A stretch of 64,000 nucleotides of DNA from Clostridioides phage LIBA2945 (MF547663.1); one strand, 5' to 3'; shown: positions 13,446-27,853, counted from the first letter of the stretch. The notes: generated by a model from the letters alone, not told the origin. Program-made: numbers and translations.

Positions 13446-13667
13446 TATAAAAGATTTCCTATGCACATTTTCTTAAAATAAATAAAATTTAAAAATATAT
13501 TGTAAAAGATGAAAAAGTATGATACTATTTAAAAATAGAGAATTAATATGCTAATCATATTTTTAATGTATAAATTATTGTGTTGATTCTAACAACTAAA
13601 TAAAATGCAAAACAATAATTAAAAATATGAAAAATGATGGTTAAATTTTAGAAAAAGGAGATGTGCA

Positions 13668-14498
13668 TATGGAAAATGAAAAAAGAAATGAAGTATTTTC
13701 AAATGAAGAGCTGGGGTAAATGTTAGGACTATAAGTTACGAAGATGGAAGTATAGGTATTAATGCTGAAGATACAGCGATTGGATTTGGTTGGTGCAAGA
13801 TAGAGAAAAAAGGAGAAAAAGAATATAAGTCAGTAAGATGGAAAAGAATGAATGAATTTTCTAAGGAGTTTGGTTTCGACCACTTGTGGTCGAAAGATGA
13901 TTACATATCAGAATCACTTTTCTATATGTTAGGTATGAAAGCTAAAAATGAAGCAGCAGTAAAATTTCAAAAATGGTTAGCAATAGATATAATTCCAACC
14001 ATTCGTAAGCATGGAGCTTATATGACTGATACAAAGATAGAAGAAATACTATCTAATCCAGATACAATTATTAAATTAGCAACTGACTTAAAAAAAGAGA
14101 GAGAAAAGAGAAAAGCTTTAGAAATAACAAATAATAAACAACAACAAATCATAGGTGAACTTAAACCAAAAGCAGACTATACATATTTGATACTTAGAAA
14201 TGAAGGATTAGTAACCATAACTCAAATAGCTAAAGATTATGGGATGAGTGGTAAAGCTATGAATAACAAACTGAATGAGTTAGGAATACAGTTCAAACAG
14301 AGTGGACAATGGTTATTGTATAGTGACCATCAGGCTAAAGGATATACCCATTCTGACACAATAGATATTGTAAGAGCTGATGGAACACATGATGTTAAGA
14401 TGAATACTAAATGGACTCAAAAAGGAAGATTAATGATATATAAGAAACTTAAATCAATAGGCATATTGCCTGTCATAGAACTTAGTGAAGTTTGCTAG
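13668..14498 (+). pseudogene. disrupted Bro-N/KilAC antirepressor paralog
   Basis: 13668 starts with ATGGAAAATGAAAAAAGAAATGAAGTATTTTCAAATGAAGAGCTGGGGTAA (MENEKRNEVFSNEELG*), which parallels MENEMKVEVFKNEQFGEIRV of the intact paralog at 14654. The reading frame is then lost. The surviving ORF 13848..14498 keeps the C-terminal KilAC-like part (IEEILSNPDTIIKLATDLKKEREKRK, shared with the paralog). Confidence 0.6.
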
Positions 14499-14582
14499 GT
14501 CGTCTCAAAATACATGTTAAGGTTTAATAAAAAGAATTCAAAGATATAAGATAATATTGATAACTACATAATAAGAATATTG

Positions 14583-14628
14583 CTAGAGAGATTAGCATGC
14601 AGAATCAATATTATTCTAATCTCTCTAG
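14583..14628. promoter_or_regulatory. 13-bp perfect inverted repeat (ctagagagattag ... ctaatctctctag) upstream of antirepressor 2
   Basis: Seen directly. No T-run follows, so it is more likely an operator or RNA structure than a terminator. Confidence 0.5.
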
Positions 14629-14647
14629 TTAAAATAAATAGGGAGAT

Positions 14648-15439
14648 GTGTATATGGAAAATGAAATGAAAGTAGAAGTCTTTAAAAATGAGCAGTTTGG
14701 TGAAATTAGAGTGTTAGAAAAAGGTGGAGAACCTTGGTTTGTGGGAAAAGATGTAGCTGAAATGTTAGGATATTCCAATTCAAGAGATGCCTTAAAAAAG
14801 CATATCGACGAAGAGGATAAGGGGGTAGCGAAATGCGACACCCTTAGAGGAAGACAAATTTTAACAATTATTAATGAAAGTGGATTATATAGTTTAATCT
14901 TAAGTTCTAAGTTGGCAGAAGCTAAAAAATTCAAAAGATGGGTGACAAATGAAGTATTACCTACAATAAGGAGACATGGAGCATACCTGACAGATGATAA
15001 GATAGAGGAAATATTATCCAATCCAGATACAATTATAAAACTGGCTACAGAATTAAAAGAAAAGAGAGAAAAAATAAAACAATTAGAAACAGAAGTTGTC
15101 CATAAAGAAGATGTGATAATTGGATTAGTTGAAGATATAAGTTTAGCAGAGAAAAGACAAAGAATTAATCAGATAGTTAAATATAAGGTAGAGCCTAAGA
15201 ATTTCAGTAAGAGATGGAATTTGTTATATGACGAATTTGAGAAAAAATATCATCTTGATTTGAAAAGAAGAATTAATAATTGTGATATAAAACCTAAAAT
15301 TAGAAATAAGATAGATTATATAGATAGAGAAATGAGTATGATTCCTCAATTGTATGAGATAACATGTAAACTGTTTGAAAATGATGTGGAAGAATTAAAA
15401 AATGAATGGATTTCTGTTATAGAAGAAAAAGTTTGTTAG
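14648..15439 (+). CDS. phage antirepressor (Bro-N N-terminal + KilAC-like C-terminal)
   Basis: FGEIRVLEKGGEPWFVGKDVAEMLGYSNSRDALKKHIDEEDKG is a typical Bro-N signature. C-terminal IEEILSNPDTIIKLATELKEKREK is the ANT/KilAC region. Confidence 0.75.
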   Translation: MYMENEMKVEVFKNEQFGEIRVLEKGGEPWFVGKDVAEMLGYSNSRDALKKHIDEEDKGVAKCDTLRGRQILTIINESGLYSLILSSKLAEAKKFKRWVTNEVLPTIRRHGAYLTDDKIEEILSNPDTIIKLATELKEKREKIKQLETEVVHKEDVIIGLVEDISLAEKRQRINQIVKYKVEPKNFSKRWNLLYDEFEKKYHLDLKRRINNCDIKPKIRNKIDYIDREMSMIPQLYEITCKLFENDVEELKNEWISVIEEKVC

Positions 15440-15495
15440 ATTTAGATGTGACAAATAGTCACTTATGAGATAGCATTGATAATTGAATAATAAGG

Positions 15496-15537
15496 CTAGA
15501 GAGATTAGTCTAATATCATTGTTATTCTAATCTCTTA
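15496..15537. promoter_or_regulatory. imperfect copy of the same palindrome upstream of antirepressor 3
   Basis: tagagagattag ... ctaatctctta. Confidence 0.45.
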
Positions 15538-15567
15538 AACTAAATAAAATGAAAAGGAGATTGGAAT

Positions 15568-16281
15568 ATGGGAAATTTAATGGTGTTTGAAGGTAAAGAA
15601 GTTGAAGTATTTGAGTTTGAAGGAAAGATTTTATTCAATCCTAAACATGTGGCAGAATGTTTAGAGATTTCAGATGTTAACAGCAGTATTAGAAAATTTA
15701 ATGATAATCAGGTAGTTAAACTGACTAATTCAGATATGCACAATATGCATATCCGAAAATTAAATAATGCAGGAGAGAAATTTCTTACAGAAAGTGGAGT
15801 ATACAAACTAATATTTAAGTCTAAAAAGAAAGAAGCAGAAAAATTTCAAGATTGGGTAATGGATGAGGTATTGCCATCTATTCGTAAAACAGGTACATAT
15901 AATATAAATCAAAATTATCTATTAGAAATGATACAAGGTGGTATTATGGGAGGTCTTAAATCTGTAGCACAATATGTAGATGACAGATTTAATGGAATTG
16001 AAGAAAGTAATAATCGAAAAATTAATGAGATAGAAAGTCTAATTGGACTTAGAGCCAAGAATGTAACCATGTTATCAAAATTATTAAAATTAAAATTGTC
16101 TTATATTAGAGGATACAATGTTAAGGCAAATGATTATGATTATAAGGCTACAACAACTAAAATATTCTTCAGATATAATGTGAATAAGTGGGAGGATATA
16201 CCAGCATCTAAATTTAATGAAGTTTATGACATAATTAATAATTTAGAAAACATTGATGATGTATATACATGGAAAAATTAG
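15568..16281 (+). CDS. phage antirepressor (Bro-N domain, divergent C-terminus)
   Basis: N-terminus FEGKILFNPKHVAECLEIS...AGEKFLTESGVYKLIFKSKKKEAEKFQDWVMDEVLPSIRKTG is Bro-N-like. Confidence 0.65.
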   Translation: MGNLMVFEGKEVEVFEFEGKILFNPKHVAECLEISDVNSSIRKFNDNQVVKLTNSDMHNMHIRKLNNAGEKFLTESGVYKLIFKSKKKEAEKFQDWVMDEVLPSIRKTGTYNINQNYLLEMIQGGIMGGLKSVAQYVDDRFNGIEESNNRKINEIESLIGLRAKNVTMLSKLLKLKLSYIRGYNVKANDYDYKATTTKIFFRYNVNKWEDIPASKFNEVYDIINNLENIDDVYTWKN

Positions 16282-26579: not shown

Positions 26580-26586
26580 AAATATT

Positions 26587-26613
26587 AAGACAGTATACTA
26601 ACTGTCTTTTTTT
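26587..26613 (+). terminator. terminator (trailer copy 1)
   Basis: aagacagt ... actgtctt hairpin followed by a T7 run. Confidence 0.7.
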
Positions 26614-26637
26614 ATGCTTTAAAAAGGAGTTGGTTAA

Positions 26638-26748
26638 ATGGCAGAAGAATTTAAGATTAAGACCAGTATAGAACTTGATGATAAAAAAGCTAGACAACAA
26701 TTAGCATCATTACAAGCGTCAGCAAAAGAAAATAATGTCGAATTGTAA
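26638..26748 (+). pseudogene. duplicated 5' fragment of the tape-measure gene fused in-frame to the 3' end of the DUF559-like gene
   Basis: MAEEFKIKTSIELDDKKARQQLASLQASAKENNVEL* compared with the TMP start MVEEFKIKTSIELDDKEAREKLEKLK. The last 7 codons (KENNVEL*) equal the end of ORF 24649..25809. Confidence 0.8.
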
Positions 26749-26808
26749 TAATTTTCCTAATCGTATATTCTTGATATAATTAATGTATCAGAATATAAGG
26801 GGGATGTT

Positions 26809-27792
26809 ATGTTTAAGAAGATATTATTGATTGGGATTGTGAGTATATTAGGATTTGGAGTTGTAGGATGTAGTGATAGTAATAAAAATGAAGTAGTAAA
26901 AAAAGAAAAAAAAGAGGTATCATTAGAAGGGCTTACTCATATTATGAAAAACTATGATAAAATGACAGATTATTCTATAGATAAATTTTCTAATGAAGAG
27001 GAAAATGATTTTAATAAAGAGAATTGCATAATAGATGACAATGATGAAAAAACAAAAGAGGCATTAGAAATTACAGATAAAACATCTAAAGATATGAATG
27101 AATTGATTGCTTTATCTAAAGAATACAAAAAGAATGATTTAAATGACACAAAAAAGAAATTTGAAGATAGAATGGATGAATTCAAATCAGATATTAATTC
27201 TTATATGGTAGATATAACTCCATTTGAAACACCTGAAAGTTTGTTAAAAGAACTTGAAGAAAAGGAAAATGAGAAGATTATTTGGAAGGAGAGAAAATTT
27301 TTTATCATTGATAAAAAATTAGATAGTAAATTTATGGACTCGGAAAACAGGCCAATAAATAGTTGGTTTAAAAGTAATTATGACTTAAGAAAATTTCAGA
27401 TAGATTTTCAAAATACAGTATTAACAGGAAATGAACAGTTGAAAAAAAACTTTGATAACATAAAAATGAATATTGATGATAATAACTCTCATGAATTATT
27501 AAAGAATCAGACTAAATTAAAAAAAATTATAAAATATTGGGGTTCAGAATTATATGCTATGAATTCATATATTAGAAGTAATGAAATTACTTTGAGTGGG
27601 AATATGAATATACTTCTTTCTAAATTTGAAGAAGAAATTAGGTGTTATAGGACTATAGAATCTTCATTCTCACATGATTTAAAATCGACAAAACAGAATT
27701 TAGATAATGATAGTACAATGATGCCTTCTTATATAGAAAGTGCAGAAAAATATTATAATGACATAAAAGAAATGGAAACTTATTGGAATTAA
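26809..27792 (+). CDS. lipoprotein (signal peptide + lipobox)
   Basis: MFKKILLIGIVSILGFGVVGCSDS has a signal peptide with the lipobox cysteine. Rest is charged/coiled. Moron position. Confidence 0.55.
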   Translation: MFKKILLIGIVSILGFGVVGCSDSNKNEVVKKEKKEVSLEGLTHIMKNYDKMTDYSIDKFSNEEENDFNKENCIIDDNDEKTKEALEITDKTSKDMNELIALSKEYKKNDLNDTKKKFEDRMDEFKSDINSYMVDITPFETPESLLKELEEKENEKIIWKERKFFIIDKKLDSKFMDSENRPINSWFKSNYDLRKFQIDFQNTVLTGNEQLKKNFDNIKMNIDDNNSHELLKNQTKLKKIIKYWGSELYAMNSYIRSNEITLSGNMNILLSKFEEEIRCYRTIESSFSHDLKSTKQNLDNDSTMMPSYIESAEKYYNDIKEMETYWN

Positions 27793-27803
27793 ATAAAAAC
27801 ATT

Positions 27804-27830
27804 AAGGCAGTCAATTGACTGTCTTTTTTT
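27804..27830 (+). terminator. terminator (trailer copy 2)
   Basis: ggcagtcaattgactgtc palindrome followed by a T7 run. Confidence 0.7.
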
Positions 27831-27853
27831 ATACAAAAAAAGGAGTTGAGTAG

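Follow-up and report, generated by a model that had tools for sequence, protein, structure and literature searches.

We analysed a 64,000-nucleotide (nt) stretch of the genome of Clostridioides phage LIBA2945 (MF547663.1), referred to below as the window, in which the tail morphogenesis genes are split by a block of 14,408 bp at 13446..27853. This block, here called the slot, lies between gp16, a gene of the YomN family, and the gene for the tape measure protein (TMP). Position 13445 is the final base of the gp16 stop codon and 27854 begins the ATG of the first TMP open reading frame (ORF); these exact limits bear out the first-pass annotation, which had placed an interruption of the tail genes here. 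Between 6000 and 30000 the window was 99.3% identical to Clostridioides phage LIBA6276 (MF547662.1) at the same coordinates, and the gene for a glycine-rich tail protein further downstream differed in length by 150 bp (49137-50702 in the window, 49137-50852 in MF547662.1), showing that the window represents a very close relative of LIBA6276 and not the identical record. Passages of two papers place LIBA6276 in the phiCD211/phiCDIF1296T group of ~130-kb C. difficile siphophages, which are maintained extrachromosomally in a plasmidial state (PMC5786514; PMC12671070). The LIBA6276 record is 134 kb long; the window has a guanine-cytosine (GC) content of 26-29% and is transcribed from left to right up to ~57 kb. 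Structural proteins of near-identical relatives matched the Pfam families YonD_N, YonB, YomX_C, YomW, YomU_Tube and YomN, and since these are named after Bacillus phage SPbeta, the morphogenesis module can be described as SPbeta-like. Genes for ERF, RecJ, RuvC, an exonuclease, a Xer-type recombinase and an integrase are annotated in LIBA6276, all of them outside the slot, and further regulators and antirepressors are annotated elsewhere in that genome.

The slot holds at least 13 genes, which all lie on the plus strand apart from a single repressor gene, and its GC content (25.3%, falling to 23.4% in 16282-22699) differs modestly from that of the flanks (27.7% and 28.7%). Four Bro-N/ANT antirepressors were recognized by Pfam, with E values from 1e-18 to 1e-31. 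The first, a Bro-N plus ANT gene at 13669..14498 (ANT E 1.4e-31), is disrupted by a 1-nt deletion, with GGGG at 13713-13716 where the intact 276-amino-acid gene of UViG_641736218 has GGGGG, so that only the ANT part (13848-14498) is left as an ORF; a pseudogene, a sequencing error and a switch prone to slippage are the candidate explanations. Two Bro-N paralogs follow at 14654..15439 (E 1.5e-29), which is connected to 13652-14124 by the repeats D1, D3 and D8, and at 15568..16281 (E 1.7e-18). Next comes a LytTR-family response regulator (16574..17278; Pfam) whose receiver is intact, with the acidic pocket, D55, T83 and K103 all in place. No histidine kinase is annotated in the whole LIBA6276 record, which makes the regulator an orphan by annotation. 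All of its close relatives (54-99% identity) were found on phage-sized Clostridioides contigs, and chromosomal relatives were at most 41% identical.

Small ORFs occupy the next part of the slot: family F2 at 17514..17873 (PHROG 16601), of which ten copies exist in 6 genomes and which is followed by a terminator at 17896-17921; family F13 at 18026..18313 (PHROG 28201); and a 52-amino-acid ORF of family F3 at 18681-18839. An apparent Bro-N gene fragment, read by eye as a remnant, lies at 19140..19230 with a terminator at 19233-19255 just behind it. The largest gene of the slot encodes a Type IIG (MmeI/Eco57I-like) restriction-modification (RM) enzyme of 1075 amino acids (19472..22699, terminator 22709-22735). 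It matched Pfam Eco57I (E 3e-42) and MmeI_Mtase (E 1.9e-18) as well as the PADLOC family REase_MTase_IIG (E 2.4e-100, residues 44-837), and it is a single polypeptide with a gamma-class N6-adenine methyltransferase domain; the matches to MmeI_N (24.2 bits) and MmeI_hel (24.5 bits) both lie under the 27-bit cut-off. A XRE/CI-type helix-turn-helix repressor on the minus strand (22795..23244; HTH_3 E 3.8e-18, Phage_CI_repr E 6e-6) is divergent from the fourth antirepressor, a Bro-N plus ANT gene identified by Pfam (23505..24548, terminator 24555-24582).

The slot ends in three cassettes. Cassette 1 carries a nuclease-like protein of family F15 (24649..25809; PHROG 34504), which had weaker matches to HNH and homing-endonuclease PHROGs (E 1e-10 to 1e-12), no Pfam match and no sequence relative in the PDB. 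Cassette 2 carries a membrane protein with a C-terminal SHOCT domain (25869..26579; Pfam E 6e-7, terminator 26585-26612), and cassette 3 a predicted lipoprotein (26809..27792; PHROG 36346, terminator 27802-27829) with the annotated signal peptide MFKKILLI...GFGVVGCSD. PADLOC assigned no defence family to the response regulator, the SHOCT protein, the lipoprotein, the F15 protein or the small ORFs, and Rfam at gathering thresholds gave no match in the whole window. The first-pass annotation had listed antirepressors, an orphan regulator, small ORFs, an RM enzyme, an XRE pair and three cassettes, and the Pfam, PHROGs and PADLOC searches returned this same inventory. It had also stated that the block lacks an integrase; a Pfam scan of the window proteins indeed revealed no recombinase gene in the slot.

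We then compared the slot with its counterparts in 6 complete phage genomes, IMG/VR contigs for which gp16 and the TMP gene served as anchors, and 10 further assemblies. Thirteen genomes, the window included, fully span the interval from gp16 to the TMP gene, and the counts of slot content given below refer to these. The length of the slot was 4.4 kb in phiCD211 and 5.3, 6.2, 6.2, 8.6, 9.9, 10.5, 11.0, 11.4, 11.6, 14.0, 14.4 (the window) and 17.2 kb in the others. We found 43 ORF families in it, none of them universal, and nearly every layout differed; ten more contigs gave yet further layouts. XRE and antirepressor genes were present in 10 of the 13 genomes, the 52-amino-acid ORF family in 8 and the RM gene in 7. 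The cargo of relatives is of the kind usual for defence genes and morons and, among genes that the window lacks, included ToxN/AbiQ, an AbiLi/AriA-like AAA_21 ATPase with a partner, a DpnII-like restriction endonuclease beside an ATPase, a DrmA-like fragment, a CWB2 wall protein, lipoproteins with WG repeats, XRE-TPR regulators, DUF4379 zinc-finger nucleases and an IscB-like RRXRR+HNH protein. The last of these, 450 amino acids long, lies in the slot of a C. difficile phage (L016, UViG_2541047276) at ~11168-12520. Otherwise unrelated lipoproteins of families F8, F16 and F19 at the end of the slot share an almost identical signal peptide with its lipobox, MFKKILLI..GFGV[IV]GCSD, joined to different mature domains (WG repeats and others), which suggests that the variants arise by domain swapping through recombination within the region coding for the signal peptide.

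The first-pass annotation had pictured the block as a single island inserted as a unit. The comparison did not support this: the slot is a mosaic of at least seven modules distributed independently among the relatives. AR1086-1 has 19200-26736 in common with the window at 99.7% and is without 13446-18115; UViG_641736218 has 13446-17986 and 22779-24651 in common with it and is without the RM gene. A discrete mobile element with ends of its own, inserted once into the tail operon, would account for the lower GC content relative to the flanks and for the sharp left edge at 13446. Against it stand the independent distribution of the modules, the other cargo that begins at the same edge in every relative, the lack of a recombinase gene and, in a repeat analysis, the lack of terminal repeats at the slot ends. 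We therefore regard a single inserted island as highly improbable.

Two distant relatives settle the polarity of the change. In contig L024, homologs of gp15 (the gene preceding gp16) and gp16, with hidden Markov model (HMM) E values of 5.5e-8 and 7.6e-9, are followed directly by a TMP-like ORF, and the site is empty; the N-terminus of the TMP reads FSIKTHLDLDDSEARSKIQNL in L024 and FKIKTSIELDDKEAREKLEKL in the window. In contig L025 the gap contains an IS200/IS605 TnpA and TnpB only (6734-8278). This pair and the IscB-like gene of L016 are transposon genes of the RNA-guided-nuclease type that have entered the slot. The ancestral order is thus tube - Dit-like - gp15 - gp16 - TMP, with no gap; the slot genes do not form an ancestral component conserved in the structural operon. 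The comparative search for island-free relatives proposed with the first-pass annotation had accordingly found one in L024 and mapped the boundaries. The same junction is occupied in Bacillus phages: in SPbeta, yomM (encoding a XerD-like recombinase), yomL, yomK and yomJ lie between yomN and the TMP gene yomI, phi3T has a recombinase and an IS3 element there, and Goe11 another mix. Because every family member has its own cargo and the Bacillus phages have other cargo, we consider this a slot shared across the group and not an insertion peculiar to the window phage. The suggestion that the position is unusual is therefore not supported, HK97 being a further case, and only the size is out of the ordinary. 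An assembly artefact, by which the tail genes of a defective prophage were joined to another element, had no supporting point that we could find; eight complete phage records obtained independently of one another, and many independent assemblies, have this architecture too, the upstream tail genes belong to the same phage in all complete genomes, and transcription direction and GC skew run uninterrupted from 1 to 57 kb. Its probability is negligible.

We observed 22 terminator-like hairpins where 2.5 were expected, and the F2 ORF at 17514-17873, the RM gene, the antirepressor at 23505-24548, the SHOCT gene and the lipoprotein gene each have a terminator of their own, so that the first-pass claim of own terminators and promoters holds for the terminators. 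The terminators at 26585-26612 and 27802-27829 are copies of each other (repeat D11). Each of the three cassettes is preceded by one copy of a 25-nt head, D12, on the plus strand (TTGATAYAATTRAWGTATCAGRATA at 24610..24634, with further copies at 25832..25856 and 26771..26795), which consists of an extended -10 element (TGnTATAAT) and a TGATA-N9-TATCA palindrome. In 23 of 29 copies D12 lies 12-17 nt upstream of the start codons of unrelated cargo. A second element, the 28-nt D2 box, also occurs in three plus-strand copies, which agrees with the repeated motifs reported near the small ORFs: copy 1 (AATGATGACAnnnnTATGACAAGnATAA, 17955..17982) is a linker and recombination junction, copy 2 (18534..18561) lies 120 nt upstream of the 52-amino-acid ORF, and copy 3 (22748..22775) is the most recurrent internal junction. 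A scan of the 64-kb window and of 20 genome segments placed every copy of both elements inside the slot and on the plus strand. Only 25 nt, holding the ribosome-binding site, separate the end of the last terminator (27829) from the TMP start, so that late transcription of the TMP gene would have to read through the slot terminators. Such read-through would imply antitermination or a terminator-insensitive mode of late transcription, by analogy with the lambdoid late operons.

We next located the ends of homology blocks (at least 85% identity over at least 300 bp) between the window and its relatives. The 77 block ends fell into 35 clusters, of which 20 were intergenic where the intergenic share of the slot predicts 22% (indicative binomial p = 7e-6), and 7 clusters lay no more than 50 nt from a D2 or D12 copy, where 1.8 would be expected (indicative p ~0.002). 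The most recurrent junctions were at 13447 (9 genomes), 22742 (8 genomes) and at 17989, 18115, 19197 and 27807 (5 ends each). Nine relatives share a left homology edge at 13444-13450; nine block ends from 8 genomes fall at 22721-22779, around D2 copy 3; five fall at 17986-17996, by D2 copy 1, and five at 19162-19227, by the Bro-N fragment. The shared left edge, the differing content of the 13 genomes and the distant empty site uphold the earlier proposal that accessory cargo has gathered at a recombination hotspot.

One junction could be resolved to the nucleotide. Sequence comparison and the repeats D4 and D6 identified the annotated 36-amino-acid ORF on the plus strand at 26638..26748 as a chimeric remnant. 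Its 5' part consists of the ribosome-binding site and first ~29 codons of a TMP gene of the AR1086-1 type (D4, 81% identical to the TMP start at 27837-27931), and its 3' part of the last 8 codons of the F15 gene at 24649-25809 (D6, 94%). The two parts meet at a 13-nt microhomology, AAAAGAAAATAAT, at 26724-26736, which is present in both parents. As read from these remnants, the junction is the footprint of an unequal crossover at microhomology, which stacked the lipoprotein cassette behind the SHOCT cassette. Deletions in relatives end in repeats shared by the antirepressor paralogs, running from 13706 to 14634-14642 and from 14107 to 14925. Taken together, the breakpoints at linkers, the microhomology junction and the deletions between paralogs argue for homologous and illegitimate recombination between genomes of related phages and not for a site-specific system. 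An ERF-type recombinase, and also RuvC and the exonuclease, are plausible catalysts of the reshuffling.

These junctions also bear on an integron-like explanation, according to which a tyrosine recombinase would act at the D12 and terminator sites, namely YomM, encoded in the slot, in the Bacillus phages and a Xer-like enzyme supplied in trans in the present phage. Such a platform would be expected to frame unrelated cargo genes with one type of palindromic head and one type of hairpin tail, as seen here; Xer-type genes occur elsewhere in LIBA6276, and YomM adjoins yomN in three of three Bacillus phages (SPbeta 12302-13303, phi3T 10791-11825, Goe11 11198-12205); no account of YomM function was found in the literature searched. 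However, none of the C. difficile phages examined has a recombinase in the slot, and a search of LIBA6276 for a YomM ortholog returned none, the best match having 21% identity and an E value of 0.001. The resolved junction is a microhomology crossover with remnants of neighbouring genes, which is unexpected for site-specific insertion, and the deletions map to paralogous coding repeats. We consider an integron-like platform very unlikely. It is a long shot, too, that the SPbeta-like phages of Bacillus and Clostridioides have in common a standardised cassette platform in which the D12 head would serve as a common promoter-operator, paired with the terminator at the TMP start, such that one repressor co-regulates the cargo and a recombinase perhaps moves it; if true, this would be the phage analogue of an integron within a tail operon.

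A different view takes the interval as a functional and conserved module for the control of lysis and lysogeny (the label used in PMC5786514), with the XRE/antirepressor pair as its essential switch. In keeping with it, the best sigma-70-like candidate promoter of the region, TTGACA-17-TATTAT on the plus strand at 23305..23333, a consensus match only, lies between the divergent XRE and antirepressor genes; these gene classes recur in 10 of the 13 genomes, and SPbeta yomJ, annotated 'immunity protein d', occupies the same slot. However, three of the 13 genomes have neither XRE nor antirepressor and carry only small ORFs, the RM gene and one lipoprotein, contigs L028 and L036 are likewise without both, and the slot of L024 is empty. 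Other regulators and antirepressors reside elsewhere in the genome, and one antirepressor copy in the slot is frameshifted. The several family members that do without the pair weaken the label of a lysogeny control module, and we judge this view unlikely.

Collectively, the data make it probable that 13446-27853 is the current filling of a hypervariable accessory slot at the fixed gp16|TMP junction of SPbeta-like siphophages. In the phiCD211-like lineage, the gap would have been filled with moron-type units, each comprising a single cargo gene behind a short conserved head that contains an extended -10 box and ahead of a hairpin terminator, and would house regulatory modules as well. Whenever related phages or prophages share a cell, the slot could be reshuffled, with the D2 box, the D12 head, the terminator together with the TMP 5' end, the paralogous antirepressors and occasional microhomologies as exchange points, and recombination would swap, stack or delete modules without a dedicated integrase. 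The cargo probably serves the plasmid-prophage state, as judged from the domain families. The Type IIG enzyme would target foreign DNA and other phages; the SHOCT membrane protein and the lipoprotein beside the TMP gene are candidate superinfection-exclusion factors; and cross-talk with host signals and with prophages in the same cell would fall to the XRE repressor, the LytTR regulator and the antirepressors.

Several points weigh against the reading as an accessory slot. Promoter-like sites were not enriched, 123 being observed against 144 expected from shuffled sequence in a scan that is uninformative in DNA of 25% GC, so the promoter half of the earlier claim is not demonstrable by scanning and depends on motif conservation only. 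Expression of the cargo in the lysogen as moron-type units is likewise a matter of inference. Common ancestry of the related genomes means that the breakpoint clusters do not count as independent events, and their p-values are indicative only; block ends at linkers would be equally expected if a site-specific system acted on them, and a single junction (26724-26736) directly displays a homology-driven crossover. The XRE and antirepressor genes recur in 10 of 13 genomes, and their role may go beyond that of cargo the phage can do without. Finally, the sampling is narrow: apart from two contigs (metagenomic or isolate) whose host is unknown, all relatives come from a single host genus.

The genes to the left of the slot are tail genes. 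The tail tube protein (10843..11661, plus strand) matched a PHROG of virion structural proteins (E 4.5e-81), and near-identical proteins of relatives match PF27173 YomU_Tube; a strong terminator follows at 11669-11688. The Dit-like tail protein (11759..12544, plus strand) has the N- and C-terminal domains of DUF6558 (Pfam E 1e-30 and 4e-27) and is 24% identical to SPbeta YomH. Contig L031, from a C. difficile relative, has an extra ORF of 469 amino acids without a Pfam match between its tube and Dit-like genes (7356-8765), marking another insertion point in this operon. Next in the window are gp15 (12558..13007, plus strand), a conserved small protein of the tail module, and gp16 (13008..13445, plus strand), the left anchor of the slot, whose homologs carry PF27376 YomN and whose HMM matched SPbeta yomN with an E value of 3.3e-5. 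No paper describing YomN function was found in a literature search. Remote homologs of gp15 lie upstream of the TMP gene in L024 and L025 (HMM E 5.5e-8 and 1.8e-10), and gp15 and gp16 directly precede the TMP gene in L024 and, apart from the insertion sequence, in L025. Profile searches gave no TAC Pfam family, no PHROG function and no relative among PDB sequences for either protein. The arrangement of a programmed -1 frameshift is absent, the TAG of gp15 being directly followed by the ATG of gp16 in the same frame, and AlphaFold2 models built from alignments of Clostridioides homologs had mean predicted local distance difference test (pLDDT) scores of 54 (gp15) and 48 (gp16) and were unusable. 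The label 'chaperone-like' is therefore positional only, given by the place of both genes beside the TMP gene in empty-slot relatives, and is unverified.

The genes just upstream of gp16, gp15 included, remain 88-99% identical across relatives, and gp16 itself exists in two allelic types, type A with 94-100% and type B with 60-66% identity to the window copy. TMP exon 1 also has two types, 96-100% or 23-28% identical to the window. The types of the two genes are associated in 12 of the 13 genomes and uncoupled in L018, L028 and L036. We considered a coupling of the two as a chaperone-client pair, which these three cases break; the association more likely reflects lineage.

To the right of the slot, the two ORFs annotated as 'ATPase' (27854-29332) and 'hypothetical' (29655-35723) proved to be one TMP gene, interrupted by an unannotated element of 289 nt. 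Exon 1 (27854..29313) matched the TMP PHROG (E 7e-224) and ends in positions 1-76 of the PhageMin_Tail profile, which continues at 83-201 from nt 29604 in exon 2 (29603..35723). All three parts lie on the plus strand. Removal of the element (29314..29602) yields an ORF of 2,526 amino acids without an internal stop, with the predicted spliced-exon sequence ...GAUAUGCU|AAACUAUG... at 29313/29603, and L018 has an uninterrupted allele of the gene (92-99% identity). We found ten distinct copies of the element at four sites (A-D) of TMP genes, with the open frame regained at each; site D is empty in the window. All ten are preceded by exon ...GCU and have G as their final base. RNAalifold predicted a P1 helix in which the U.G at the splice site is invariant, and a fold of 81 pairs with 99.7% of cells paired, in which 23 pairs had compensatory changes, compared with 11.2 in shuffles and at most 2 in slid controls. 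A P7 pseudoknot and an IA-like layout were assigned by eye only. For the catalytic core P3-P9, a permissive Rfam search of 29200-29750 with RF00028 gave no match at E <= 1; the same model does detect the phiCD211 intron (L002 23976-24240, 41.7 bits, E 3.9e-9). We classify the 289-nt element as a putative group-I-like intron whose splicing is predicted; the stretch of the TMP gene that encodes PhageMin_Tail is a hotspot for introns. The public annotation can thus be corrected to one TMP gene of 2,526 amino acids and supplemented with an intron family missed by the Rfam group I model.

Two further insertions were seen in relatives: the phiCD211 intron detected with RF00028 is a second, different one that lies ~25 nt downstream of its 289-nt copy and is absent from the window, and L012 has an insertion of ~290 nt at the position equivalent to ~29658 of the window. 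We also considered whether the free-standing F15 and DUF4379 nuclease-like genes of the slot drive homing of the ORF-less TMP introns or co-conversion of the slot. Their presence had no obvious correlation with intron occupancy among the few genomes available, and the idea was set aside as speculation.

Behind the TMP gene lies an ORF-poor stretch of 1.86 kb (35724-37582), which separates it from the next tail gene. It holds two or three units of ~510-540 bp arranged in tandem, which contain hairpins as well as conserved palindromes (ATGATATAAATTTATATCAT). Three minus-strand ORFs of 59, 53 and 38 amino acids (35951-36130, 36491-36652 and 37264-37380) encode a hydrophobic N-terminus and a charged C-terminus. 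A permissive Rfam search of 35700-37600 returned nothing meaningful. From their layout, the units look like type I toxin-antitoxin modules and would form a second, smaller accessory slot in the operon.

The slot at 13446-27853 is a place to seek new anti-phage and superinfection-exclusion genes of C. difficile plasmid-prophages. These are very common in clinical genomes, and a single gp16 variant accounts for 1,762 indexed blocks of the contig collection. The boundaries and linker motifs permit automated extraction of cargo from thousands of assemblies, and for the engineering of these phages the 14-kb slot is probably removable or replaceable.

Morons at the chaperone/TMP junction and mosaic exchange at linkers are textbook concepts, and it is established that defence genes gather in hotspots at fixed sites in the genomes of temperate phages. 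HK97 gene 15 is reportedly the moron of Juhala et al. in 2000 and Cumby et al. in 2012. It was the first element to be called a moron, lies between the tail chaperone and TMP genes, and its product gp15 blocks superinfection by other phages (PMC3594210). HK97 gene 15 resembles the slot as extra DNA just before the TMP gene within the late operon; it has a promoter and terminator of its own, deviant composition and a protective effect expressed from the prophage (PMC3594210). The defining feature of a moron, extra DNA between genes that are adjacent in relatives, is found here, the flanking genes being adjacent in L024 and the content between them variable in 13 genomes, and the last three cassettes of the window fit the HK97 pattern with extra DNA, an own terminator, a promoter-like head and slightly lower GC content. 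However, HK97 has one small gene, whereas the slot of the window has at least 13 genes in at least seven modules, including regulators and a 3.2-kb RM gene. Unlike HK97, the window cassettes have a standardised head and tail, and their prophage expression is putative.

The P2/P4 defence hotspots of temperate phages and satellites, reportedly described by Rousset et al. in 2022, are similar in that differing anti-phage systems (RM, ToxN/AbiQ, AbiL-like ATPases and nucleases) occupy a fixed position. They differ from the slot in its location inside the tail morphogenesis operon, not near the attachment or cos sites, and in the mixture of its cargo with antirepressors and regulators. Linker (boundary) sequences are said to have been proposed for modular exchange in lambdoid phages by Clark et al. 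in 2001, and De Paepe et al. reportedly described in 2014 relaxed homologous recombination by phage recombinases of the Rad52/Erf type. The window has the short conserved intergenic sequences around modules, the clustered breakpoints and, in its genome, the ERF-family gene in common with the lambdoid linkers, whereas the role of ERF at the window junctions is putative.

A further parallel is the yomM-yomJ interval of SPbeta, which shares a homologous YomN/TMP junction, non-structural cargo on both strands bounded by annotated stem-loops, and variability among SPbeta, phi3T and Goe11. It differs in being ~3-4 kb long and in always having YomM first, whereas the C. difficile versions are without a recombinase and have no cargo in common with the Bacillus ones.

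For the phages themselves, passages of the describing paper report that the structural cluster is interrupted by a module for regulation and DNA modification, at the same position and with the same gene classes (regulators, antirepressors, a DNA methylase) as found here (PMC5786514). They give gene numbers per subgroup (5-7 against 1-4 annotated genes) and suggest a role of the regulators in prophage cross-talk or in sensing host signals (PMC5786514). Those passages take a functional-module view and are without exact boundaries, the lack of a universal gene, the empty site, the linkers, the remnant junction and the SPbeta parallel (PMC5786514). The interruption is therefore already known in kind and, for this phage family, in substance. 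The current view of phage genome organisation is unchanged by it, and its size and clear cassette structure are noteworthy. What the present analysis adds to these known systems is the exact boundaries, the lack of an obligatory gene, the empty site, the parallel with SPbeta, the standard head and tail of the cassettes and a junction formed at microhomology.

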